Source of the DNA: Haliotis cracherodii
Lineage: Eukaryota
Assembly: GCF_022045235.1 (NCBI RefSeq)
Contig: NW_027266286.1
Span: forward strand, 21,886,001 to 21,950,000
DNA length: 64,000 bases
Reading direction: 5' to 3'
A model generated the notes under the pieces. The model saw nothing but the letters and a program-made list of their open reading frames with translations. It made no database searches and was not told the origin of the DNA. The position numbers and the translations under genes are program-made. Below are positions 3,801-57,319 of the stretch, one piece after another (positions within the stretch are counted from its first letter, which is position 1; the number at the start of each line of letters is the position of its first letter).

Positions 3801-6800
3801 AGAATAACTTTCTAAAAAAAAGAGAATTTTCTACTTTACTATGCCAATTTTGAATTCCAATATCCTTACGCCGTTGTTCGAACTGCTGCAGAAATGCATC
3901 CACATCCCCCATACGATTGCATAATCCAAACATATGAAAAACCTGTATTGAACAAGAGTTCCCGAACGTGACTGACCCAGTTTACTCTTCCTAACTCATC
4001 ATGTGATTTCAACATGGCATAACAAGCCCTGGGATATCTACCACAATCTAAGGTTAAAAGTTTTTTGTGAAAAACTCAACATTTATATAATTTCTACCAC
4101 AGTCTCCGAGAACCGCATTGCTGGAAGAATATTTAGATAAACCTACCAACTTTGAACCTTTTCTATTTTATCGTTATATTTAAATCCCCAAATCTCGGAA
4201 CCATATGTCAAAATCGGTAATATTTTAGTGTCGAAAATTCTACGTGCAACAGAAAAGGAAATATTTTGAAACTTATAAAAAAATCGAATAAAAGAAAGAA
4301 GCAGCTTTTCTAGCCTGGATCGCCAATGTTTCACATGCCTTTGACCAAACTAAACGAGAAGAGAAAACAATTCCTAAATATTTATAATATGTAACAGCCG
4401 ATAACTGAATTCCTTTATAGAACCATTTTTCACAAGCTCTGAGAATGCCTCCATTTCTAAACACAACAACATTTGACTTACCTAAATTAAATTCTAACCC
4501 CCATTTCTTAGGGAACTTTTCTAAACTATTTAGCCGCTTTTGAAGATTAATAACGGAATCCGCTACCAACACCACATCATCTGCAAATAAAAGCAGTAAA
4601 ATGTCTTCAATATCCTGATTTACAAATATTCCCCTCCCTGAATCTTCCTTTATATCAACATGAATCAACATTATATAATTTACCATGAAATCCATTTAAT
4701 AATAACCTATATAAAACCTTTTCTTTATCAACTAAATTAAATGCCTTTTTGAAATCAATGAAAACTGCATAAAATCTGTGATTTGGTTTACTAAGGTACT
4801 TTTGACATAGTGAGTGAAGAACAAACATATTATCCGCATTTGCAAATCCCTTTCTAAAACCGGCCTGTGATTCATCAACTTAATCAAATAATTCTACCCA
4901 TTTCCTAATTCTTGATTCAACAATATTAGTAAAAACGTTCCCCATAACACCTAACAACGAAATACCTCTAAAGTTGCTTGGGTCTCAATATCTGTCTTTT
5001 GCAGTTCGTCTATTTACAATGTGGATATTCCAAGTTTTACACAGTTCTAATAAAGACATGCCAAATTTATTTACTGTTTATCCTGTGAAACTCTTGATTT
5101 ATTAAAAGTGTCGGCAATGTAATTGTCATGTAACTGGAGATAATCTTGATAATTATCCTCTTCCAAAATATAATCATCTTGATTTGCCGTTCTCGCATTT
5201 AAATCTCCCATTATAACAATTTCACAGTCATTTCCATATTTATAACTAAGAACAGCAATTTTACTGTCTAATTCATCTATTCCATCAGTATTTAAATTAC
5301 TGTACATGTGAGATTTTTCAGGTAAAATATAAACAGCACCAATAATGAACTGATGAAAAACGGACTGAAATAAAACAAATACACAGTTTTTCCATTCTGG
5401 ATGGAGTCTTATACAAAAATTTGATAGTCAACTATGGAGATACAGACAAACACCACCCGAAAATCTACCTCTATCATGGTGTCTTGTGACAAATGAAGAA
5501 AAACAAACATGGTCAGGGAAATAGTATTCTGTAATACTATTATCCGGTTGCATAGTTTCTATTAAACTAATGATGTGATACGAGGAGAGCAAAGAAAAGA
5601 AATCTTGATTAGACAGATGTGAGCGCAGCCCACATATATTCCACGAACACACAGTGACAGTTTCCGTCTTATCGATTTTCTCAACTGCTAGGGCGGTATT
5701 ATCTAGGCCACGGCCGAGTCCCTATGGGCCAGTAGTGTTAGCTTGGTCGCGCTGTTCTCTGTGTTTGGATTTGGATCCAATTCGCGTTCCCTTGTCTTCA
5801 TCCAGTGTGTGAACATCGCCTTCAATCACAAGTTTATCGTACGAGAGATAAGCCAATTTCCCTGAATCCCGTGCTTGGACATGAAAATGAATTAAAGCCT
5901 TACGCTTTAGTCTTGTCATGGTCGTGTAGTCATCAGAGACTCTCATTTCTTTCACATTCTTTGATATATCCCTTGCTGCACTTACAACCACTTGCTTTTC
6001 TTTGTAAAGGCTAAATTTCACTATTACAGGCTTGATGGTAGACCTGGTATTCAGACGATGTGCACGATCTATTTGGATCATATCCGAGTTTTCTAGCCTC
6101 AATGTGTCCCTGAAATATATCTTACTAAAGATTCTGTTTCTTCCCAAAACTCCCAGGCTTTACCACGATGTCCATGAATTAAGATATTTCCCCTTCTGCT
6201 CTGGGCTTCAAGTTTATCTTGATTCACTTCAAGCCGTGAAATCCTGTCTCTTAGTTTTGCATTTTCTTGTCTTCAGATTGTATACTATCACTGAGATTGT
6301 CAAACTTATTATGCAATGCAATCATCTCTGCTTTGATAGATTTCAAACTCATGTGAACTGATTCATCGCTTTCGTCATCGGGACTACTATCGGCTGACTG
6401 ACTGAAGGGAAGTTTACTTTGACGAGTTTCTCTCGGGCCAGGATTAGTGAGTGAGTGAGTTGGGTTTAACGCCGCTTTTAACAGAATTCCAGTTATATCA
6501 CGGCGTGTCAGCTTAAAACGTTTACCACTTCGGTGAAACCCACGAGCACGGATATGGTGCTGACAAACCTAGAAACATAATTGGGGCGAACCGGGTTTCG
6601 AACCCACAATCATAGGTCTCTGGCGTGCCCAAGGGACGCAACTCTGCACAGCGAACCGCGGCACCTCTGACGACTGGGCCACCCACGCCCCCGGGCCAGG
6701 ATTAAGTTCCATATCGGAACATAATTGCAACAGTTTATCTACATACGGAGAGTCACTATTACTCAGGCAATGGGGACCATCACAATCAAAATAAAACACC

Positions 6801-11976: not shown

Positions 11977-12204
11977 TGTTTTCATCTTCTCGACGTATCT
12001 GGGAAAGGTTTCCTGACGTTCTCTGACTTGCGGGAGGCGGCTGACCACACCCAGGTGCGCCTGTCCAACAGGGCGGTGCGGGAGATGCTGCAGGAGGCCG
12101 ACGTCACGGGGGACGGGAAGATCACCCCCGACGAGTTCGTCCACATCATGTTGCAGACCAACACCTTCAGACTGACCAACAAGGGCAGGACCAGGCTGAA
12201 GTGA
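11977..12204 (+). CDS. Centrin-like EF-hand protein, final coding exon
   Basis: TTTCAG acceptor. Reads CFHLLDVSGKGFLTFSDLREAA...EMLQEADVTGDGKITPDEFVHIMLQTNTFRLTNKGRTRLK* (EF-hands 3 and 4, centrin-like C-terminus). Total CDS 1269 nt = 422 aa. Confidence 0.92.
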   Translation, partial: CFHLLDVSGKGFLTFSDLREAADHTQVRLSNRAVREMLQEADVTGDGKITPDEFVHIMLQTNTFRLTNKGRTRLK

Positions 12205-13169
12205 TCCTGTAAAAAATTACCAAAACTCAAAAGTGACGTATATGATACTTGTGCTACCTGTGATATCCACAGACTTGTGGTAGCGACAAGCGCATTCGTC
12301 ACCACTCGCCCCTTTCCGTAACCTGCTTGTCCGGGAATAACACGAGTTGGTCACGAATGCGACAAGTGCTTACGGTCAAAGGGAGATAACTCTAGATACC
12401 GGATGTGATAACGAATGTCAACTGTTGTTACCTTTATTATATTATTGCTATTTACATAATTATTCATACATCGTCATCATCATAATTATCTATATTTTGA
12501 TTGTTTGTCTTGTTTACAGTTGCATGTCAGTAAATAATTCTTTAATCTACTTAACGCCCTTATTTTCAATTCACCAGATCGTCCCCTTAAACCTTCTGTC
12601 TATCTTTAGACATTTTTTCACACCTGCAGGGCTTCCCCAGTCTATTTATATCTTGCATTAAGCACTTCCTTTGATCTATCTTCTAATTGGCCACCCTGGT
12701 CCTTTACAGGTAGCTTCTTTCCATACCTGACTTCCTCCTCACTTCTTGTGCTGCTGTTGAGGAGGAAGGATATTTTCTTTTCTTCAGGTATGGAATGGCC
12801 ACTTTTCAATCTGTTTTCATCTGCCTCTGTCAGAAATTAATATCTATATTAGGTTGCGGAATTAAATTGAATAACATATGTAATATCTTTCAAAGTAATA
12901 TTAAATTAGTAAATGAAATATTAATATTATAAAACTAGTTTGTAAAATAATTAACCACATGGTCCATTTTGGCCCATGTGCTTTTTCAAGTATTATAGAA
13001 TTTTAATGTTAGATTATTACTAGTTTTATTATGTTTACAAAATGGCTTTGTACTTCTATGATAATATAAATACCTGTTATCCTGCAAATACCTGACTTCA
13101 TGTGCTGCTGTTGAGGAGTAAGTATATGTTCTTTTCTTCAGGTTATTTCTTCAACAGCAGCCACCCCCA

Positions 13170-13363
13170 TCATTTAATAAAAGCGTAATCATCATCTGCT
13201 AGTGTCTGTGTTCTCCACCAGCCTGAGCCGGATCAAATACACCACCCCGGCTACAAATTTGGCGCCCAACTTTGGGCTGAGCACTTTCATATTACATTTG
13301 AGCAAAATAAGCCTCAGTACCCTACTATGCGGCCCGGGACGTACCTTCTGTTGACGGGGAATA
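13170..13363 (+). mobile_element. LTR 3' end, tRNA-Lys PBS, short internal region and PPT-like tract
   Basis: AATAAA...CCCCGGCTACA (ends 13255), then TGGCGCCCAAC at 13260 (tRNA-Lys primer site), then GACGGGGAATA immediately before TGTAGC at 13364. Confidence 0.6.
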
Positions 13364-13535
13364 TGTAGCAGGGCGTGGAGTCATCCCACAGATGACATCC
13401 TTACCTTGACAGCTTGTTGACGGGGTTAACCTCTTTGGTCATGTGGACAAGGCGTCAGACCTCGCGTCAGACCTCTGATCAGAAGGTCCGTGGTTCGAAT
13501 CCCTTCAGGGGACACAATTTTTTTATGGCCGCTAA
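13364..13535 (+). mobile_element. LTR-like repeat containing a tRNA-Arg-derived pseudogene
   Basis: Second copy at 53761-53921 (-). TGTAGC start, GGACAAGGCGTC...GATCAGAAGGTCCGTGGTTCGAATCC tRNA-like core, then an oligo-T run. Confidence 0.65.
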
Positions 13536-13687: not shown

Positions 13688-13940
13688 GAGGCACAGGTTG
13701 CGCGGTCATATAAGGCGCCGTATTTCGCGGTGTAGAGTTGCGTCTCTTATGTGTGCCAGGAACCTATGATAGTGGTTTCGAATCTCGGTTCGCCCTGATT
13801 ATGTTTCTGGATTTCTGAGCAACATACCCATGCTTGTGAATTTCACAAAAGAAATGAACGTCTACAACTTGCATCACTTCAGGTTTTCCTCCCATATTAA
13901 GCTGACAGGTCGTGATATAACTGAAATACAGTTCAAAGTC
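13688..13940 (+). mobile_element. SINE family A, old diverged copy
   Basis: Colinear but mutated homology to family A. Confidence 0.75.
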
Positions 13941-14035: not shown

Positions 14036-14290
14036 CCCGTGAAGATCCGGGGTAGATAAGGTCTTCAGCAACCCATGCTTGCCGTAAAGGGCGACTATGC
14101 TTGTCGTAAGAGGTGACTAAGGGGATCGGGTGGTCAGGCTCGCTGACTTGGTTGATGCATGTCAATTGCGAGGATCGATGCTCTTGATATCAATCACTGG
14201 ATTGTCTGGTCTAGACTCGATTATTTACAGACCGCCGTCATATAAGTGGAATATTGCTGAGTGTTGCGTTAAACAACAAACAAAACAAAT
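14036..14290 (+). mobile_element. SINE family C copy
   Basis: Homology to 345-621, with (CAAA)n tail. Confidence 0.85.
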
Positions 14291-22812: not shown

Positions 22813-25084
22813 TACCACATCATAGATCGGGGTTGTCATCCTGTTTGGTTTAACTTGCAACGGAGAATGTAAACACAAGATTGTCAGCCATTGACAGCTG
22901 TGAGGTGTGAGTCACCGTCATGAAGGTCAAGTTCTGCCTCATCCAAGTTCGGGGTGGAGAGGCATTCATATTTGTGTTATTATTGTTTACTGGGGGTAAT
23001 TGATAACTAACTAATAACACTGACACAAGTTAAATGTACAATAGAATGTTAATTCAAAAAGTCTGTTGCAGAAGTATATTCGTTTAGCATTTTAAAACCC
23101 TTTTCTACAACCTGTCACCCCTACTATAGAAATGCTGGCATGTTCGATTTTCAAGAAATGACAGGGTCAGCCGAAACAGTGTACCATGGGTTGGAAGGAA
23201 TTAAAACATCTGTCTTTGGACTAAGTTTGGAGTTTTATTGTGTCAACTTCTTTTGCAAAACTATCTGTTTTGAACACTTATTTTGAACTACTCACGACTA
23301 TGGAGTTATTAATCTTGAACTTTAGTAATAATTGTTACATATATAACTACCTGTGACCACTTTTCGGAATGATCTAAGATTGCGGAGCTATGTGCCTGTA
23401 TTGTTACGCATTGCAAGAGAGCACCGTTTTCAAAGCGTTGTTGCAGTCATGGTAGAATTGTGGTTTAGTGCTCGGTTCCAAATCATAATAAAGAGGTGTC
23501 TACTCTACAGTAAGACTACATCAAATGAAAGTTACCTCCCTAACGCTCATATGATTACTCTGACACGTCAATTGTTCACGCTGTCCAAAAGTGCTAATAC
23601 CTCGCTACAAGGAAACCGTTAACCGCTTTCGGCCTCTCCCCGTCCTTCTCGTCAGCCAGACTCGTTACACGGAAATTGGTTCAACGTTTCCTGCATCGCT
23701 AAATGCTGTAGGCTAGTCCCCGACCTCCTCTACAGGCAAACCCGCTACACGAGAATGTAGCCACACGGGGATGGTTTATACCCCATGTCAAAATGTCGCA
23801 TTCTCGCGTTCTCGACTATTGACGAAAAGTACGAAATAACATCAACAGAGGAATGCGAGATCGCGAGAACGCGAGATCTGAGCCAAATTTCGCTTTCTCG
23901 CGATTCTTATACTTTTTGCATATTTAGCTTTTTTCTATTACAGTGCATATATTTCATTATACTTTTTATATTTTTCACAAATTTAAACTTAAACTATGAA
24001 ATATGAAAATTCGGAAGTCGTTAGACCAGTATTTCTCGTTTTTATCGCCACTAGTCGACCATGACGTCTGCTCCTTTGCAAGCTCATACACACAAACACT
24101 AAATTACATAATCATAGATAAAGTCGCCGCGTACGTCTGCCCCAGCCCTTGTTCTCTTGATAAGTGTTTTGTTACCAGCTGGCGCAGTTTTTGACCATCA
24201 TCTAAAACTGTAATTAAAATAAATTCTTATTGGGCAATACTGATACTATTCTATTACCACCTGCTTTTGTGTAGTCAACTTTCACAGCCTAGGACAGATA
24301 ACAGAGACCGAAATTATAACTTCAAAGTAATTGTTAATGTGATAAGAGTAGAGCTGTGGGGGTATATAACTCCTTGGGTGTTGATCCTCAGCACACTTGC
24401 TTGAATAAACCCTAAAGACCTCACAGCTCTCTTCTCTCTTGTTTCAAGGTGAGAAACATTTAAATATTCCTATTTTATGACTAAACTTCTTATTTCATTG
24501 TTATTATTGTCTAGAAAATGTTATAGTTAAGTTGAATCAGTACTGCCATATTGTAACTCTCTATCTACTGTGTACAAGTTCTAAATGACTGCTTATTATA
24601 TATATTATTTACCGTTTAATACTCAGGCACTCTTCAGTGTTGTTTCTAGTGTAATGCGTTGTGGGCTCCTCCAGTTTATGTGTCATTAATATGCGGCACC
24701 AATAGTTCAAACGTCACTATTATATATTAATTGATGTAACTTGAATGATATGAGACACTTGCTTGAATAAACCCTAAGGACCTCACAGCTCTCTTCTCTC
24801 TTGTTTCAAGGCTAGCTCCCAATAGCTAATTCCCCAAACCGAGGCCTGGCAGTTATTTGTATCACACCAACAAGGCTGTCTTAATTGGTGGAGACGTTCG
24901 ATCCTCGGTGCCTGGAGCCAGCCTTGTGAAATACAAGTTGAGACTGTGACGTTACCTGTACCTGACTGCACACTACCACCACCACCTCCACGGCTTGACA
25001 CCACACTATGCCTGCTGACACCATTGTCCCCTACAGAAGCAACAACACAGTCAGTCTCATCTTACCCAGCAACAACCCCCAGTA

Positions 25085-26161
25085 ATGGCACAGATACATC
25101 TCCCCACATACACAGGTCAGCAGGAGGCTGAAAGTTGGTGGGCAGATTTCTACAATTTCAACTTCCTCCATGGTCACACAGACCCCCAATCCTGTAGAAT
25201 TCTGCCCTTCTACCTGGACGGAGCTGCTAAAGTATGGTTCAGGGACCTGCCTGCGCACACACAGCTGGACATCCACTTGCTGAAAGCGGCCTTTCAGCAA
25301 CGATTCCGAAGTTCATCAGCTTTCAATTTGAGTCTTCTTGACATGACACAGAAGGAACAGGAGGACGTTGGAGACATCATCACCAGGGTCCAAGCATCCG
25401 CGTTACACTCCTGCTTACCACAGTATGTGATAGTAGCCATTGCAATCAATGGGCTACTCCCACAGATTAAGCAGTGGGTGTATATGAAGGAGCCATTGAC
25501 CCAGGATGAGGTTCGTCACCACGCCCAACTGGCCGTACAATCGCAGGCCCCAAGCAAGGAATAGGTCAGCTTGTTCCAACAAGTTGAGAAATTAACGAAC
25601 TTGGTGACCATGCTGATCACTACAAACAAGGTCTGTGCTGTACAATCAGCAACTCGCTCGTCCCACCATCAGCAGCACGAGCCCCAGGTCCAGCAGCAGC
25701 CACCCTCCCCATCACGAAGATACCACCAGCAACCACAACAGGAACCATGCCAACTACAAGAGGATCCATACCAGTCACCACAGCAGTACCAACCACAGCA
25801 GGATCCATACCAGTCACCACAGGATCCATACCAGTCACCACAGGAACCATACCAGTCACCACAAGAACCATACCAGTTACCAAAGGAGCCATACCAACCA
25901 CCACCACAGCTGAACCAACAACTACAACATCATTACCAGATACTACAGGAACAATATCAACCTACACAGGAACAATACCAACCATCACCACAGCACTATC
26001 AGCCACCACAGAAGGAGTATCCAGTCCCATCACCTCAGCCCAACCACACAGCACAGCAACAACAACAGACGCCACCCTTCTACCCGTACAGCTCCAGCAA
26101 CAGTCAACGTCTGCTAATTCCACAGCACCTTCAAAGCAGGTGGACTACATTTAAAAGGTGA
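25085..26161 (+). pseudogene. Gypsy gag with Q/P-rich repeat region, one in-frame stop at 25562
   Basis: LPFYLDGAAKVWF and MTQKEQEDV retrotrans_gag motifs. ORFs 25085 and 25571 share a frame. Confidence 0.85.
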
Positions 26162-26339
26162 AATTCCTTCCACCTATACAGATGTTCAAGTCAAGGGTCT
26201 AACTGGCCTTGCTCAAGAGTATGACATACATGATGGTATTCTGTACCACTTCTATCATGCAAAGCACAGAGGTCAGAAAAATAATCTCCCTCCTATGGTA
26301 ATGCAGATAGCTGTCCCTGTCTGCTGTCGCAAATAGCTT

Positions 26340-27794
26340 CTTTTTGCCTACCATGATTCCAAAGCTGGTGGTTGCCACTTTGGACGAGATGCCACTCGTC
26401 AGACAATACTCCCAAAGTATTACTGTCCAGGCTTATACCAGGATATTGAGAATTATGTCAAGTCCTGTGATGACTGTGATGAAGGACAAATGCCAAGCCA
26501 GCACCAATGGTGCCCATGCCTATTGAGGACACATTCTCTCTTCTCCATGTCGACATCCTTGGGCCACAAGGAAGGTTATAAGTATGTTCTCCTTGCAGTT
26601 GATTCCTTCTCACGCTGGACAGAAGGTTTCCCTGTGTGCATTCAAGAAGCCTCTGAGGTTGCATCAATCCTGTTCACTGAGGTCTTCTCACGGTTTGGTG
26701 CTCCCCGTACACTTCTTACTGACAGAGGTAGGCAGTTCACTTCCAAGCTTGCAAATGCTCTCTGTGAACTCCTCGATATCAAGCACTACTACACTTCGTC
26801 CTACCGCCCCAAGACTAATGGGATGTGTGAAAGGAGGAACAGTGTCATAGAGCAGGCTCTCCGAACATATGCTGACCCTGATCAGACCAATTGGGCCAAA
26901 CTCATTCCATGTGTAATGATGGCCATGCGCAATGTACCTTGTCAATCTACAGGGTATTCATTCAGGAAATGAATCTTCCTTTTGACACAACCTTGCTGCC
27001 TAAATCTACCCTCGGCAAAGATACACAGGGTCATCTTCAAGATCTCTTGAAAAATCTGAATGTGGCAAAATCCCTTGCAAAGGACAACATGTCTGCTGCT
27101 CAGGATAAAAGCAAGAATCTTCAAGATATCAATCAGAGCCAAGGACACTTCATTTGCAGTTGGTGATCAGGTTCTCATGACTGATCCAACTGTCAAAACT
27201 GGCCTTTCCCCCAAACTGTCAAAGAAATGGATCGGACCTTACAGAATCATTCACATCGGTCTAAACCATACATTCAAACTAAAGAACACTAACACAAACA
27301 AAGAACATAAATCCTTCATTCATGCCAACAGACTTAAAACTTAAAAACCTCCAACCCCTCGAAGACAACCTGCACAACCCGCTCCGCATCTAGCAACACC
27401 CACTCAGTCGATGGCCTAAAAGCCCGACAATCCTCGTAGAGAAGCCTCACAAACAGCTCAGCATCAATCAACTCCAACTCAGTCAACATCCTCCCATCCT
27501 GACAATCCTACCACAACACAGCACACTTCCGCAGAGCATCCCATTATGCTACCCACTATGAGTCCCACATCATCTGCCCAACCAGATGATTAACTTTATG
27601 CTGTAAAAAGCATACACAAAGCTAAAAAGAAGTCAGGAGTAACTCATTACCTAATTGAATGGAAAGGTTACCCCCAACGCACCTGGGAACCTGCCTCCAA
27701 CCTTAGTGCGGAAATGATAAGTGATTACCATACATTTAGAACAGGATCTGGTCACAGACGGAAACGGAAACACAGATATTTTGCAAAATCATAG
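26340..27794 (+). pseudogene. Gypsy integrase (Zn finger, DDE core, GPY/F) plus C-terminal chromodomain, frameshifted
   Basis: YHDSKAGGCHFG; VDSFSRW, LTDRGRQF, TNGMCERRN; KWIGPYRI; YAVKSI...YLIEWKGY...TWEPASNL. No PR/RT/RNase H recognisable between gag and IN. Confidence 0.9.
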
Positions 27795-29815: not shown

Positions 29816-30990
29816 AATTTCCTATTATCATTCTTAGTTTTACTTTTTCTCTTTGGCTGCGGTGATATCCATCCGAATCCAGGACCTTTGCATAGTCCAG
29901 ATTTAAAGATTATATATCTAAACGTACGCTGTCTTAAAGACAAAGTAGATTTAATCAGTGCTGAATTAGATAGTTATGATGTTGTATGTTTCAAGCAAGG
30001 ACTGGTCGGCTCGGAGTCAGTATACTGTGTCTGTGTGGGGCATTTTAGCGAGTGTGCTTATAAATCTTTTTTCAAAATCTTTGACACGAAAATAATTCCT
30101 ATTCTTTCCTATGGTTCAGAAATATGGGGTTTTGCAGAGGCTAAAGAAATTGAATCCGTACATTTATACGCATGCAAAAGATTTTTTGGTGTTAAACATA
30201 GTACGTCAAATGTAATGGTTTATGGTGAATGTGGTCGCATGCCCTTGTATATATATCACTACTTAAAAATCATAAGATACTGGTTAAAATTACTAAAAAT
30301 GCCAGTAAGTAGATTGCCAAAAAAATGTTATAATATGATGCTATTGTATGAAAAGAATGGAGATCAAAATTGGGCATACAATGTTAAATGTCTACTGTAT
30401 AAATGTGGGTATGGTTACATCTGGGAAAACCAATGTTTCTTAGAGAATCATGTCATGTTCATATCGAAAATAAGGCAGACGCTTTTTGACATGTACTTTC
30501 AAACATGGAGATCTACTGTAGATGTTTCTAGCAAATGCGAATATTATAGATATTTTAAAATGCAAATATGCGCAGAAAAATATTTAACTGATGTAAATAT
30601 AAGAAAATGCAGAATATCATTAACACAATTTAGATGCAGCTCACACAGGTTAATGGTTGAAGTTGGCAGGCACAACAAACTACCCAAATGTTTAAGATTA
30701 TGTAAACAATGTTCTTTAAATGTTGTCGAAGATGAATTTCATTTTCTACATGTATGTTGTAAATATGATAATTTAAGGAAAAAATATATTGAAAAGAAAT
30801 ACTATGTACATCCAAATAAATACAAGTTTATCTCTTTAATTTCACATGTGAGCAAAACGGCTATACAAAATCTCTCTCTCTTTATATATCATGCCATGTT
30901 ATTAAGAAATGAATCCTTGTAACATTCCACATTGTCATGTATTCTGTACTATGGGCCTGTGGCCTTACAGTTATATATGAATAAACTGAT
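29816..30990 (+). mobile_element. Chimeric LINE fragment: 2A-like motif + EN N-terminus + SINE snippet + L2-group ORF2 C-terminus and 3' UTR
   Basis: GDIHPNPGP, then IIYLNVRCLK, then ILSYGSEIWG...CKQC..EDEFHFLHVC. 3' end GGGCCTGTGGCC...AATAAAC, also seen at ~21910-21940. Confidence 0.85.
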
Positions 30991-37349: not shown

Positions 37350-39620
37350 GCTTTGTTGTTGTTGCATTAAGTGTTTAACAGGTCGCCTTTTGCCAAAGCA
37401 ATTTCGGCTGACCTGTCCCTCTTTGGGACTCCTGTATGTGAGTAGGGTACACATATCTATTGTGAGTTTGGTATTCACAGAATTTCTGTTTTTGTATTGA
37501 TATGATTTCTATTTTCGTATATTGATATAATTTCATTTTTATCTTTGGCTGCTCTGTTTATATACGTTCGAGTAGCTGTCCATCTCTCAAAAATAGAGTT
37601 AGTTTGGCCTTCGCTATTGCATCTCTTGGCTTTAGGAGATCTATGACAAAGGGCGGATCTAACTGCAATTCTTGTTTAACCGAGTCCGGGCTGGGGCTTG
37701 GTCTTGACATTCCAGTAACAAGAGTGAGCAATGGATTCAGCCCAACTGCAAGATGAACAAAACTTGTCATTGTTCTTTGTGTGACCGAGTCTGAGGCGTG
37801 AGATGGCAATTTCAACTTTCCGTTCATTTGAGTGTGAGTTTGGCTTTTGTTGGATCTTGGGTTGAATTTTGTATAGCCATCTGCCGATCTAACTTGCGTC
37901 CCACAGGTCTTGCCATCTTTCTGCTATAGAGGCTTTGATTTTGATTTTTATCTCTAGTTTACTAAAGGGAATAGGCTGTATCTCCGCTTCGTCTAGAGCT
38001 ATTGTGTCTGTTTTTCATTTCTATGAATATCTATGTGAGAGGAGTTCCAACACAGCTCCACCTGTTGCCCTTGGTCCGATAGTTTTGTATATTCGTACAG
38101 AATATTATTGACTGTGTTTTGGCTAGAGTTTGAGTTTCTGCTGCTGATGCCTTGAAGTGCACCTAGCGAGTCTAATAGGACGACTGCCTTTGCTTCCGGA
38201 AGTTCCGGTATGAGTTTGAGTGCATGATGAATTGCCTCCAGGCGAACCGAATGTGCATGGGGTTTGGAGCTGTGGATATGGATCCCGTAACCAGCACTGT
38301 TGTTGATAGGATTCTTGGATCCATCAGTGTATATATGGGCCCAGCTGTCCAAAGTAGTTTGAATTTTAGTGATAGCTACTGATCGTGGTAGGGTTGGATT
38401 TTCCTTTTTAGTGACTTCTGATGTTAAAGCTGTATCTACTTTGGGAGTTTTTAAAGTCCAGGGAGGGTGTAACCCTTTGTAGTGACTTTCTGGAGGCTGA
38501 ATGTCATCACAATTGTGACTTCGGATGAGTTCTTGTACTAGTATCCCAGATGGCTTTAGAGAGGGATTTTTTCCGAGCTAGGGCTTAATCTCGAGTGTTT
38601 TTGTCTTGACATATCTTTTTAACCAAAGGGTTTGATGTTCGTCCCCAGAACGATATTATAGCCTGCTCTCTTCTTAGTTTCGACTTGTAGTGCTTCTAGT
38701 GAAGTGCCTGTGGCCAGCATTAGGGCTTGGTATTGTATTCCGTCGAGGCGGCTCAAGACAGTATTTGATGCTAAGTGAAAGATATCACAACATTTGCCAT
38801 GTTCCCTTCTGCTCCATTTTGTGCTAGTTTTGTGAGGAGTCTGACATGCCAAATCATGTTGAAGACTTTGCTGAAGTCCAGAAATACTGCGGCTACGTAT
38901 TGTCTGTTTAATTGAGCTTTTTTCAATTTCATTTTCCAGTCTTAGATGATAATCTAAATATGAGTGTCCCCTCCTGAAGCCGCTTTGGTCAGGTTTGATG
39001 TGGTTGTTAGTTTAAGGTGATGCATGAGCCTTTTCGTAAACATGGCTTCCATGGCTTTGCACATGTTTGAGGTGAGTAAGATCGGTCGATAAGTATTTGG
39101 TAGGGCTTTGTCTTTACCTTGCTTTAGAAGCAGGATAACTGAAGCATGTTTCCATGCTTTTGGGATTCTCCTTTGGACCATATCGTGCTATACAACTCAG
39201 TGAGTAAGCTTTTGGTTTGATCAGGTAGGTTTTTCAATATCTCGTAGCTGGTTGTGTCAAAACCAGGTGCTGTGCCTTTTCTATGTTGTATCGCATCGTC
39301 AAACTCTTTCACAGTAAATGGGATATTGTATACCAGATGATTGCTTTGCGGCTGTTTTGATATTTAATTCCAGTTTGAATTCTTTGCTTCAATGTTTGTT
39401 GCTGCTGGGTTTCAGCAGCTTCAGTAAGTACTCTTTATACGCTGGTACTGCAAACTGTTATCAAGAGCGTGGCAGAGACTGTGAGTGGGGCTATGGGCTG
39501 TTTCAGGCTTGCCATAGTGTGACTAGATCTCACCCCAGTGTGCTTGCCTTCTGAGCGATGAGTCGACTGTTAGTTGTTGGCTGTTGGCTCGTGTGGCTGT
39601 TGCTGTTCCTATGTTTCTTC
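37350..39620 (-). mobile_element. Decayed I/Nimb-like LINE (RT + RNase H) with (CAA)n tail
   Basis: RT N-terminal motifs GTAPGFD..SYEILKNL and WKHASVILLLKQGK..YRPILLTS. RNase H motifs IYTDGSK, LEAI..AL, LDSLGALQ and WNSSHIDIHRNE. 3' tail ...GGCGACCTGTTAAACAC...CAACAACAAC. Confidence 0.85.
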
Positions 39621-48225: not shown

Positions 48226-48425
48226 GTGAGTGAGTGAGTTTGGTTTAACACCGCTTTTAACATTATTCGTGTCAGCTTAATGTTGGAGGAAAGCCAAAAG
48301 TTATGCAGGTCTCAGACGTTTACCACATCAGTGAAACCCACGAGCACGAGTATGGTGCTGACAAACCTAGAAACATAATTGGGGCGAATCGCGATTCGGA
48401 CCCATAATCATAGGTTCCTGGCGTC
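48226..48425 (-). mobile_element. SINE family A, truncated
   Basis: Homology to the family A 3' part. Confidence 0.85.
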
Positions 48426-48504
48426 GTAATAATAATAATAATAAAACTAATAATGATGATAATGATGATGATGATCATTATTATTTTTATTATTATTATT
48501 ATAA

Positions 48505-49405
48505 AAATCTGGAGTTCAGAGCTGAACGCTCGCAACAAAGTCAAAGCCACAAATACTTATGCTGTGTCCGTCCTTTCGTATTCTTTTGGTGTTGTTGATC
48601 GGACGAAACAAGAAATTCAGGGTATTGACACCCTCACACGCAGAATCATGTCAGACAATAGATCCCACCACACTTGCTCTTCCCTCAATCGCTTATATTT
48701 TCCAGTCATTGTGGGAGGGCGTGGTTTGATTAACGTTGGGGCTCTTCATGATAGAATTGTTTTGTACACTTTTGCACAGATTTATTTGTCTGATGATCCT
48801 CTTGTGAAGCATATCAAGACTCATGATGAAAACAAGGCATTCCACAGATTTCTAAAACGAGCCAAGGATGTGGGACATAATCTCAATGTCGCTGTTGATT
48901 TTGTTGATGGTTCTGTACAGCTGGACGGTACAGAAATGAGTGTCAACCAATGATTGTCGTCTGGGCTGAAAAGTGAAACAGAAGGCTTTATGTTTGCTGC
49001 TCAGGACCAGTCACTTCCCACTCGATACCATCAATGTGTGATTTTGCATCAAAATGTAAATATGAAATGTAGATTATGTAATGAATTTAATGAGACTGTC
49101 CAACACATCGTCAGTGGATGCCCAGCTTTGACACAAACACAGAATCTTAAACGACATCATGGTGTAGCTCGATCATGTTATTATCGTCTTCGACATGCTT
49201 GTGGTTTTGACACAGAGGTCCACCCAGGGAACGACCAAGAATATGTAGAGGGCGTCATGGAAAATGATAAATACAAAATTCTTTGGAATAGGCCCATTTA
49301 CAACCTCAGACTTATCCAGGCCAACAAACCTGATCTTGTCCTTTTTGATAAATCCAATGAAATCATTTATATCACTGAAATTTCTGTCCCCTTTGACCCT
49401 TATGT
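48505..49405 (+). mobile_element. R4/Dong-clade non-LTR retrotransposon C-terminal fragment (RT thumb, CCHC, restriction-like endonuclease)
   Basis: NKVKATNTYAV..LSYSFG, RLY..GGRGL, ETEGFMFAAQDQSL, CRLC..ETVQHIVSGC, RH..VA and KPDLV..D..EISVP motifs. Abuts (TAA)n/(TGA)n. Confidence 0.88.
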
Positions 49406-49862
49406 TGTGTGCAGTTTGATATCTAAATTGAAATTAATAAGATAAAGTATGTTTTACGAGTAAGTTAGCAAGCACTTACAGTCAACCAATGACCGTTTGC
49501 CAGGCTGTACAACAGTGTAACAAAGTACTAAATGTACCGAATAGTCCTTTAACAACCTCTCCAAGGCTAGACGTGTGTTTGTTATCGGTCCACAAAGAAG
49601 TCAATATTTTGCGTGGAAGAACTCGGTTATCACACATGTGGGCAGAACGCGGTGCTCGCTGTCGTGTCCAACACTCTCTTTCACACAACAAACAGTCCAC
49701 AGCGCCGTCAGCCGGCCGACACAGTCTACTCGCAAACAACGAGTTGTAAAATTTGAATTTGCAACATAATACCATTGTCTTATTTCTCTTCGTTAACAGT
49801 GCAGTGGGCCGTGTCAGTTGTTGAAAACTTCATAACGTCTTGATATACACCTACGGAGAAGG

Positions 49863-53760: not shown

Positions 53761-53921
53761 TGGAGCGGCCATAAAATTTCCGAGTCCCGTGATGGGATTC
53801 GAACCACGGACCTTCTGATCCGAATTCGGACGCCTTGTCCACGTGACCAAAGAGGTTAACCCCGTCAGCAATCTGACAAGGTAAGGATGTCATCTTTGGG
53901 ATGACTCCATGCCCTGCTACA
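53761..53921 (-). mobile_element. LTR-like repeat containing a tRNA-Arg(UCG)-derived pseudogene (second copy)
   Basis: The - strand reads TGTAGCAGGGC...GGACAAGGCGTCCGAATTCGGATCAGAAGGTCCGTGGTTCGAATCC...TTTTATGGCCGCTCCA. Confidence 0.65.
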
Positions 53922-54230: not shown

Positions 54231-54270
54231 TGAAAATGATCGGTCTGTGTCCCATGGACACTTGTTGGTA

Positions 54271-56674
54271 CGAGGGTTGATTGATAAGTTCTGAGCTTCA
54301 ACATAGAAGGATTAACGTAATTTTAACTTTTTTGTTGTGGCGATTACAGGAGGTCATACAGGTATGAGAACACAGAACCTTGCCATGGATACATTCCACA
54401 CGTGGAGCTCTGAACACCTTCAACAGAGCCTTTTCATGGCTACATTCCACACGTGGAGCTCTGAAGTCCTTCAACAGAGCCTTGTCATGGCTACATTCCA
54501 CACGTGGAGCTCTGAAGTCCTTCAACAGAGCCTTTTCATGGCTACATTCCACACATGGAGCTCTGAACACCTTCAACAGAGCCTTGTCATGGCTACATTC
54601 CACAAGTGCAGCTCTGAACTCCTTCAACAGAGCCTTGTCATGGCTACATTCCACAAGAGCAGCTCTGAACTCCTTCAACAGAGCCTTGTGATAGCTACAT
54701 TTCACACGTGGAGCTCTGAACTCCTTCAACAGAGCCTTGTCATGGCTACATTCCACAAGTGTAGCTCTGAACGCCTTCAACAGAGCCTTATCATGGCTAC
54801 ATTTCACACGTGGAGCTCTGAACTCCTTCAACAGAGCCTTGTCATAGCTACATTCCACAAGTACAGCTCTGAACTCCTTCAACAGAGCCTTGTCATAGCT
54901 ACATTTCACACGTGGAGCTCTGAACTCCTTCAACAGAGCCTTGTCATATCTACATTCCACTAGTGGAGCTCTGAACTCCTTCAACAGAGCCTTGTCATGG
55001 CTACATTCCACACATGAGGCTCTGAACTCCTTCAACAGAGTCTTGTCATGGCTACATTCCACACGTGGAGCTCTGAACTCCTTCAACAGAGCCTTGTCAT
55101 GGCTACATTCCACACATGAGGCTCTGAACTCCTTCAACAGAGCCTTGTCATGGCTACATTCCACACATGAGGCTCTGAACTCCTTCAACAGAGCCTTGCC
55201 ATGGCTACATTCCACAAGTGTAGCTCTGAACGCCTTCAACAGAGCCTTATCATGGCTACATTTCACACGTGGAGCTCTGAACTCCTTCAACGGAGCCTTG
55301 TCATGGCTACATTCCACAAGTACAGCTCTGAACGCCTTCAACAGAGCCTTGTCATGGCTACATTCCACACATGAGGATCTGAACTCCTTCAACAGAGCCT
55401 TGTCATAGCTACATTTCACACGTGGAGCTCTGAACTCCTTCAACAGAGCCTTGTCATGGCTACATTTCACAAGTGGAGCTCTGAACTCCTTCAACAGAGC
55501 CTTGTCATGGCTACATTCCACACATGAGGCTCTGAACTCCTTCAACAGAGTCTTGTCATGGCTACATTCCACACGTGGAGCTCTGAACTCCTTCAACAGA
55601 GCCTTGTCATGGCTACATTCCACACATGAGGCTCTGAACGCCTTCAACAGAGTCTTGTCATGGCTACATTCCACACGTGGAGCTCTGAACTCCTTCAACA
55701 GAGCCTTGTCATGGCTACATTCCACACATGAGGCTCTGAACTCCTTCAACAGAGCCTTGTCATGGCTACATTCCACACATGAGGCTCTGAACTCCTTCAA
55801 CAGAGCCTTGTCATAGCTACATTCCACTAGTGGAGCTCTGAACTCCTTCAACAGAGCCTTGTCATAGCTACATTCCACAAGAGCAGCTCTGAACTCCTTC
55901 AACAGAGCCTTGTGATAGCTACATTTCACACGTGGATCTCTGAACTCCTTCAACAGAGCCTTGTCATGGCTACATTTCACAAGTGGAGCTCTGAACTCCT
56001 TCAACAGAGCCTTGTCATGGCTACATTCCACACATGAGGCTCTGAACTCCTTCAACAGAGTCTTGTCATGGCTACATTCCACACGTGGAGCTCTGAACTC
56101 CTTCAACAGAGCCTTGTCATAGCTACATTCCACACATGAGGCTCTGAACTCCTTCAACAGAGTCTTGTCATGGCTACATTCCACACGTGGAGCTCTGAAC
56201 TCCTTCAACAGAGCCTTGTCATGGCTACATTCCATACATGAGGCTCTGAACTCCTTCAACAGAGCCTTGTCATGGCTACATTCCACACATGAGGCTCTGA
56301 ACTCCTTCAACAGAGCCTTGTCATGGCTACATTCCACTAGTGGAGCTCTGAACTCCTTCAACAGAGCCTTGTCATAGCTACATTCCACTAGTGGAGCTCT
56401 GAACTCCTTCAACAGAGCCTTGTCATAGCTACATTCCACAAGAGCAGCTCTGAACTCCTTCAACAGAGCCTTGTGATAGCTACATTTCACACGTGGATCT
56501 CTGAACACCTTCAACAGAGCCTTGTCATGGCTACATTCCACAAGTGGAGCTCTGAACTCCTTCAACAGAGCGTGAGAGTGTATCAATTTGGAATGGGAAT
56601 AAGAGGGCAAATATATATTTTTTAATGTCTTTAGACCAAGTCTTCCTGTTTGAATCCCTATCAATCAACCCCCG
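54271..56674. mobile_element. Mariner-type TIR element filled by a 51-bp tandem array (~43 copies, 54375-56571)
   Basis: TA|CGAGGGTTGATTGATAAG at 54271 mirrored by CTATCAATCAACCCCCG|TG at 56658-56674. Unit GCTCTGAACTCCTTCAACAGAGCCTTGTCATGGCTACATTCCACACGTGGA. Confidence 0.8.
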
Positions 56675-57319
56675 TGGTAAATGCAATCACAGAGATTAGA
56701 AGTTCACACTTAGATTTGGCGTCTGTAAAACAATCTTGCGTTTGAAATCCTCACAATCCAGTCCAGTGGATATTTAGAAGCAGAGAACAATATTGATGTT
56801 GTCTGTCCAGTGTGAATTATATCAGGTGTGCACATTTCCTCAAACCAGATTGTCATTTTAAGTTTTAATTCCTCTATGAAATACATGGTACTGGTTAGGA
56901 AGACTTGTTGTCAGTTTGGCACGTATGTTCAAGGACTATCCGATGTTTAAGAATGTCATCAATTAATTAACACATACATTATTTATGTTAATCTGCTTTA
57001 CCTCTCCAGTGGAAATAGAAACATTTACGCCATAGCAACACAACTTCTCATGACACTTAAAGGACAGAATATGAAATGTCTTTTCACTTACACACACAGC
57101 ATTACAATTGTCTCCGGTAATTAGTCATAATCGTTTATAGAAAAAAATGTCTGTTTTGTTTATCACGTAGGAAAATACCATTAGTGAGTTATCAGAACAT
57201 CCAGTTCAACATCGGGTTTTTTCCCCACCGAATCATTCAGTCAAGATTGTTGTAATTATTTCGAGTAGATGTCAGATATACACATACATGTATATTGGTG
57301 TATATGATGGTGCCAGACA

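Follow-up and report, generated by a model that had tools for sequence, protein, structure and literature searches.

The window analysed here, a 64,000-nt stretch of Haliotis cracherodii DNA, contains two copies of a short repeat, which lie at 13364-13535 on the forward strand and at 53761-53921 on the reverse strand, are identical at 141 of 170 positions in a pairwise alignment, and both begin with TGTAGCAGGG. The first-pass annotation had proposed exactly such a pair, and both units are found where it placed them. The features of the two copies and of the sequence joined to the first of them are as follows, with short motifs recognized by sequence:

12424..13255, + strand: long LTR of an autonomous family termed Gypsy-1, lacking its first ~13 bp; 5' LTR of a mosaic; ~830 bp, 85% identical to a TSD-flanked solo copy of the 860-bp Gypsy-1 LTR
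13176..13181, + strand: AATAAA within the Gypsy-1 LTR, likely a Pol II polyadenylation signal
13256..13259, + strand: 4-nt spacer of Gypsy type that separates the LTR end from the PBS (in the TRIM itself, this spacer is a single T)
13260..13277, + strand: tRNA-Lys(CUU) PBS, the mosaic junction, within 20 nt common to TRIM and Gypsy copies
13259..13363, + strand: non-coding TRIM internal region, 94% identical to a young copy; typical length, 106 bp
13353..13363, + strand: polypurine tract (PPT)
13364..13535, + strand: 3' TRIM (Helenus-type) LTR, by alignment, with eroded end bases and a 12-bp internal duplication
13428..13512, + strand: tRNA-Arg(TCG)-derived segment, by alignment to the host gene (L117)
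13518..13524, + strand: oligo-T run, predicted to terminate Pol III transcription (typical copies have T4)
53761..53921, - strand: solo TRIM LTR without recognizable TSD, 95% identical to the young copy; it contains an A-box-like element (53849-53839), a B box (53805-53795), and a T4 (53776-53773)

Upstream of the first copy, a purine tract, an LTR end, and a tRNA-Lys PBS had already been noticed, and these are present at 13353-13363, at 13245-13255, and from 13260, respectively. Likewise, the A and B boxes and oligo-T run reported inside the repeat correspond to an A-box-like element at 13436-13446, a B box at 13492-13502, and the T run at 13518-13524, while the consensus end GCTACA, originally deduced from the two window copies, is seen in genomic copies. 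Two caveats attached to that description also hold: neither window copy has a TSD, and the upstream LTR, whose end differs from that of the repeat, belongs to a different family. The proposed start of the feature at 13170 requires revision, as the upstream LTR is present but runs from 12424, well before that position. Exons of a host gene encoding an EF-hand protein (~419 aa in relatives) are located at 1893-2768 and about 12010-12200 (+), and the product is 94% identical to a Haliotis rufescens-named protein and 74% identical to an H. asinina-named one. The mosaic begins ~220 bp past the apparent stop codon of this gene, which may place the Gypsy LTR within or close to its 3' UTR. The window also holds two abundant families of short interspersed repeats that are likely SINEs (13690-13938 and 14036-14290, with many further window copies), a broken remnant of an unrelated LTR element with gag-like and integrase-like frames and a Gln/Pro-rich repeat (25019-27344, +), long 51-bp and 24-bp minisatellite arrays (54270-56700 and from 58262), and frames that by eye resemble LINE-type remnants (4273-6568, 29816-30922, 37999-39011, and 48414-49445).

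The intact TRIM is a 428-bp element in which two LTRs of 161 bp flank an internal region of 106 bp with a tRNA-Lys PBS and a purine tract. A search of its own genome returned 1790 candidates, 40 of which were scored, and many were paired ~267 bp apart. An exact 23-nt LTR motif occurs at least 763 times, and the exact PBS-internal start at least 167 times, at least 105 of them directly after an exact end of the element's own LTR. Copies take the form of LTR-internal-LTR elements, solo LTRs, and some three-LTR tandems. In a first set of 25 distinct loci, six were not two-ended and were left out; 14 of the remaining 19 have a perfect 4-bp TSD, two agree at 3/4 positions, and three have none. A second set gave a similar picture, with 17 perfect TSDs, three at 3/4, and one absent among the 21 scorable loci of 37 further ones. 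The LTR pairs are identical at 156-161 of 161 positions in 12 of 13 two-ended multi-LTR copies, and several are identical at 161/161, which indicates that the family has been recently active. The anatomy and TSDs, together with the tRNA-Arg alignment described below, thus bear out the original proposal of an LTR element that is non-autonomous and carries a tRNA-derived unit inside its LTR; LTR-internal-LTR pairs, tandems, and a PBS past the CA end, all named there as signs to look for, are present, as are TSDs, predicted at 4-6 bp and found to be 4 bp. Several TRIM copies (L008, L161, and L187/L188) contain fold-backs in which their own LTR or internal region is inverted. In L004 (1357-1426), another tRNA-like repeat, scoring 24 bits against Rfam (below threshold), is located just 5' of a TRIM LTR.

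The Gypsy-1 LTR elsewhere flanks an internal region encoding RT and integrase domains (RVT_1 then rve). A second family, Gypsy-2, was discovered via one of the mosaics (L072) and has the domain order RVT_1, RT_RNaseH, Integrase_H2C2, rve, while the pol regions of the two families are 72-74% identical at the nucleotide level. The long-LTR partners accordingly display the LTR pair around pol and the RT-RNase H-integrase order by which Ty3/Gypsy elements are recognized. LTR pairs are 98.7-100% identical in Gypsy-2 (7 copies) versus 96.3-99.2% in Gypsy-1 (4 comparisons, two of which stem from one duplicated insertion). The Gypsy-2 LTRs (L120, L122, and L124) exist in ~850-bp and ~550-bp forms; two 43-bp direct repeats delimit the stretch that is missing from the short form, which occurs in both LTRs of a copy. 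An inverted pol fragment of a third, more distant Gypsy family (L185, upstream of the PBS; L030:2603-3057) directly adjoins a TRIM PBS, and this family is possibly another helper.

The TRIM has both its termini and its target bias in common with the two Gypsy families. All three kinds of LTR start with TGTAGC and end with GCTACA; the TRIM LTR start equals that of Gypsy-1 for 10 nt, and over its initial 21 nt it agrees with the inverted end of the Gypsy-2 LTR at 19 positions. The PBS is common to all three over 19-21 nt, and a GGGGG run immediately precedes the LTR in each. Past the PBS and short chance words, no homology was found between the TRIM internal region and Gypsy. Among sites with perfect or near-terminal TSDs, an ATG before or a CAT after the TSD (the pattern ATG-N4-CAT) was found in 8/14 TRIM, 12/16 Gypsy-2, and 7/10 Gypsy-1 insertions, compared with a background of 4.1%. 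The TRIM is primed by tRNA-Lys(CUU), since the whole tRNA, including its CCA, stands in reverse complement directly behind a TRIM LTR at L071 (3204-3276; Rfam 57.9 bits). Such a reverse copy is the expected trace of plus-strand synthesis that ran through the primer and was then integrated. A reverse tRNA-Lys copy with a partial Rfam match is also found behind a Gypsy-1 LTR (L041:1435-1492). Self-priming by the tRNA-like unit of the LTR was considered as well and was rejected, as the PBS fits tRNA-Lys whereas the LTR unit derives from tRNA-Arg.

In the window copy, a Gypsy-1 LTR is joined to the TRIM exactly at the common 20-nt primer site. Fusions of this kind are recurrent: 11 distinct mosaic loci were identified (the window, L032/37, L034, L044, L046, L129, L138, L072, L135, L137, and L071), involving both sister Gypsy families and both directions. 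L032 and L037 are one duplicated insertion and were counted once, L072 was added along with L075 through pattern searches, L185 was left out, and L154, a Gypsy-2 piece beside an inverted TRIM LTR that could be a nested insertion, was not counted. It should be noted that an assembly error at the window junction would be excluded only through these parallel loci. Among 30 Gypsy-1 LTR loci, which came from 40 matches of 63 candidates ranked by likeness to the window copy and hence do not represent a frequency, seven lead into a PBS and TRIM internal region, one into a PPT and TRIM LTR, four into a Gypsy internal region, and one into a tRNA copy, while 17 have no PBS. In the reverse direction, 2/10 Gypsy-1 internal starts follow a TRIM LTR, as do 0/17 Gypsy-2 internal starts. 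The first 100 of the 167 PBS-internal starts, which are unranked, include 93 located after the TRIM's own LTR, one after a Gypsy-2 end, one after the inverted pol of another Gypsy, three after a TRIM fold-back, and two after nothing recognizable. Mosaics are therefore rare, amounting to about 1-2% of well-preserved TRIM copies. Some are elaborate. L129 reads TRIM LTR - Gypsy internal - Gypsy LTR - TRIM internal - TRIM LTR, and L135, L137, and L071 have Gypsy pieces, some of them inverted, between TRIM LTRs. At the start of L072, the Gypsy-2 LTR end is folded back, with an inverted arm (158 nt) longer than the sense arm (94 nt), such that a second template is needed. At five mosaics (L130-L134), no Gypsy sequence was found further upstream.

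If a fusion had been integrated as a unit, a single TSD should surround it. All five mosaics with readable ends agree at ≥3/4 positions (4/4 in L072 and L129; 3/4 in L138, L137, and L135), compared with 12.6% of pairs at ≥3/4 and 1.9% at 4/4 at unrelated sites, although these five TSDs were placed by eye after the ends had been seen, two of them are located within simple or tandem repeats, one holds only if a terminal base is changed, and one has a degenerate start. The other six of the 11, including the window copy, have eroded or interrupted 5' ends that make them unreadable for TSDs. Taken together, we estimate a probability of roughly 0.7 that this is an abalone Helenus-type TRIM, likely transcribed by Pol III and likely dependent on two sister Gypsy families that copy it in trans, and that the window copy is a mosaic, likely created by a template switch at the common primer site. 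Since the mosaics probably arose through template switching in shared particles, they point to Gypsy as the helper. In such a scheme, TRIM RNA would be co-packaged with Gypsy RNA, and a TRIM minus strand ending at the PBS would sometimes anneal to Gypsy strong-stop DNA or RNA rather than its own, or the reverse, placing the strand-transfer cross-over at the PBS, the sole internal homology of the two RNAs. The hybrid could then be inserted by the Gypsy integrase because both of its ends would be valid attachment sites. The Gypsy-type spacer before the window PBS fits an LTR and PBS that came jointly from the Gypsy side. By extension, and with odds that we place only a little above even, the genome would hold a fossil record of co-packaging, in which a Pol III-type mini-retrotransposon and its Gypsy helpers swapped LTRs at the primer site to yield integrated hybrids with two unrelated LTRs.

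The same joins might instead have formed after integration, either because a Gypsy and a TRIM copy underwent ectopic recombination or conversion at the 20-nt PBS or because a one-LTR Gypsy circle recombined into a TRIM. Consistent with such an origin, the junction falls at the only common homology, 6/11 mosaics lack a readable TSD, the structure of L129 is also what a circle crossover should produce, and most plant complexes are recombinational according to PMC1950507. However, recombination between resident copies should leave unmatched flanks, yet all of the readable mosaics match at ≥3/4, and the inverted Gypsy pieces, the Gypsy-2 LTR-end fold-back, and the whole tRNA copy all indicate reverse transcription. 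Moreover, 20 nt is short for homologous recombination. For these reasons, we consider a post-integration origin unlikely, even though it is the strongest competitor to template switching.

The tRNA-derived unit occupies LTR positions 66-135, which align to the host tRNA-Arg(TCG) gene with a local score of 66-75, whereas 1000 shuffles reach at most 47-49, so the tRNA likeness is beyond chance. In the second window copy (53761-53921), 49/69 columns match the host gene. The tRNA-Arg(UCG)-like sequence of the first-pass annotation is hence real, and its origin is shown only by this direct alignment, given that ARAGORN made no tRNA calls in the window or in 26 loci and Rfam yielded no tRNA match on the TRIM LTR segment in the window or the genomic loci. 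With no ARAGORN call, no Rfam tRNA match, and no cloverleaf, the unit is not a working tRNA; in folding analyses, the host gene forms a cloverleaf, while the LTR unit has lost both this and the acceptor stem. Folding also detected no significant structure in either the tRNA-like or the internal part (z about -1.4 and 0.08, respectively) and two hairpins in U3 (z -2.3), the fold-back of L008 mentioned above turning at a U3 hairpin. The B box is perfect and nearer to consensus than that of the host tRNA gene, while the A box has the YGG and a first word with 1 mismatch to TRGCY. In the young 428-bp copy, the sole runs of four or more T are at positions 146-149 of each LTR, just past the tRNA unit. 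From these motifs, the TRIM is likely transcribed by Pol III, which would start at approximately LTR position 65, leak past the T4 of the 5' LTR, and stop at the second T4, in the 3' LTR; R would then measure about 85 nt. Over the tRNA segment, 22 small-RNA reads were counted, mostly antisense and ~33 nt, which is too few to test Pol III; they come from 2/3 runs of one study (0, 19, and 3 reads) whose source need not be the species of the window and, at 90% likeness, may derive from other tRNA-derived repeats. A run search identified 20 runs (5 organisms, 8 studies) that contain 71-95% of the sampled words, none of which is listed as RNA.

Conceivably, the tRNA segment persists as a passive, SINE-like remnant, and TRIM RNA is made by Pol II read-through or from a cryptic U3 promoter. 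The imperfect A box would be compatible with this, as would the fact that Pol III use is read from sequence, and the T4 of the 5' LTR could halt Pol III ahead of the internal part. A passive remnant does not readily account for a B box that surpasses that of the host gene even though the cloverleaf is lost, or for T runs confined to the site just after the unit, and no AATAAA was seen in the TRIM LTR among the genomic copy sequences. Thus, we view a passive remnant as doubtful, and slightly more so than a post-integration origin of the mosaics.

We also considered whether the mosaics could be relics of one intermediate family, with the TRIM descending from a deletion element flanked by Gypsy LTRs that were later replaced. 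The common termini and PBS would agree with such a history. The TRIM halves of the mosaics share 88-97% identity with the young copy, and 9/9 of those aligned carry an older internal variant, which likewise favors a single intermediate; together, these values suggest that most mosaics formed while Gypsy-1 was active. However, the mosaic Gypsy LTRs come from two families and are scattered over the tree: the Gypsy-1 LTRs of mosaics are not one clade, requiring 4 changes on a tree of 25 rows, with 0/200 bootstraps permitting a single change, though the starred branches alone force only 2. In addition, no Gypsy LTR-TRIM internal-Gypsy LTR copy exists among the examined loci, and the absence of Gypsy homology in the TRIM internal region noted above also counts against this history. 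A single intermediate family is accordingly quite improbable. A template-switch fusion made in a single round of reverse transcription should have outer LTRs that resemble each other. The TRIM LTRs inside one mosaic share variants in 3/4 multi-LTR mosaics (L129, 155/161 identical; L137, 153/156; L071, 122/134), while those of L135 (124/137) share none; the shared variants may be subfamily markers. A shift of the TRIM from an older to a younger sister helper is suggested, the Gypsy-2 mosaic being nearest to the young TRIM form (97.4%), but L137, which joins 98% TRIM to Gypsy-1 pieces, runs counter to it. Lastly, despite the tRNA-derived A/B boxes, the oligo-T, and the missing TSD at both window copies, there is almost no chance of an ordinary tRNA SINE (SINE2) or an internal piece of a DNA transposon, because the copies have fixed TG...CA ends, paired LTRs around a PBS and PPT, and fixed 4-bp TSDs rather than a tRNA-head start, a simple-repeat tail, and variable TSDs, just as the first-pass annotation had argued against a SINE.

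That annotation had also pointed to small-RNA-bearing LTR families, and the group in question is already named: Helenus (TRIMp3), defined in the accessible text of Kojima 2024 (PMC10886601) by two LTRs, a size of <1 kb, an A/B-box tRNA-like unit in the LTR, a PBS, and a PPT. The abalone element has every sequence-level Helenus feature. Its 428 bp are below 1 kb, too short to encode proteins, and within the 311-1263 bp range of the group, solo LTRs and tandems occur in both, its 4-bp TSD is that of animal Helenus, its tRNA-Lys primer is used by some bivalve families, and a Gypsy helper has been proposed for animal families. The same text gives the TRGCY A-box word for most, not all, Helenus families, describes Pol III transcription as predicted and not validated, and favors several origins of the group. 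The abalone case differs in two respects. Molluscan members are reported there only from pteriomorph bivalves; in the supplement, a term search for Haliotis, Gastropod, Vetigastropoda, and abalone gave no match, and of five short strings from the abalone TRIM, four were absent and the fifth appeared 3 times, never at an LTR end. Furthermore, within the portion available, animal helpers are tied to Helenus by PBS similarity only, whereas the abalone case adds termini, target bias, and physical mosaics.

Comparable features are known from plants. Cassandra, as covered in the accessible part of PMC7215508, similarly carries a small-RNA-derived Pol III unit in short LTRs and forms tandem arrays, for which template switching is one proposed route, but its unit is 5S-derived, it is a plant element, its Pol III transcription has been shown, and its autonomous partner is called unknown. 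Sabot and Schulman 2007 (PMC1950507) described fusions of LTR elements that have TSDs at their flanks and outer LTRs resembling each other, and invoked a jump between co-packaged RNAs. In those complexes, R homology connects closely related members of a single family, unlike in the abalone mosaics, which combine unrelated LTR bodies with a ~20-fold size difference and are joined at the PBS. The chimeric TRIMs of sugar beet, to judge from the available text of PMC13570524, also have LTRs donated by another family and were likewise explained by template switching, but they are TRIM-TRIM chimeras and not fusions of a small-RNA TRIM to an autonomous partner. Template-switch fusions as such are thus already known (PMC1950507 and, in the parts accessible, PMC7215508, PMC13570524, and PMC6894440). 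The open literature (subscription journals, Repbase, and Dfam being outside this scope) yielded no report of an abalone Helenus or of mosaics between a TRIMp3 and its helper, and the family itself may already be catalogued in Repbase or Dfam. The element is a member of Helenus, and what is new is the mosaic evidence for its helper.

These results extend the range of Helenus from bivalves to a gastropod and reveal a recently active family, with no fewer than 763 LTR copies, that could be misannotated as a SINE. How the dependence of a TRIM on its helper is kept is described as not known, and the helper of Cassandra as unidentified, in the accessible text of PMC10886601. Apart from a 20-nt primer site and a purine tract, TRIM and helper have only ~6-21 terminal bases in common in the abalone. 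If the genome does preserve co-packaging in this form, the hybrids would directly name the helper of a TRIMp3, the TRIM would appear to have left an older helper for its younger sister, and one mechanism would serve for TRIM tandems and LTR replacement alike. A search for mosaics of helper LTR, PBS, and TRIM would offer a cheap route to the helpers of Cassandra, Ajax, and other Helenus families.
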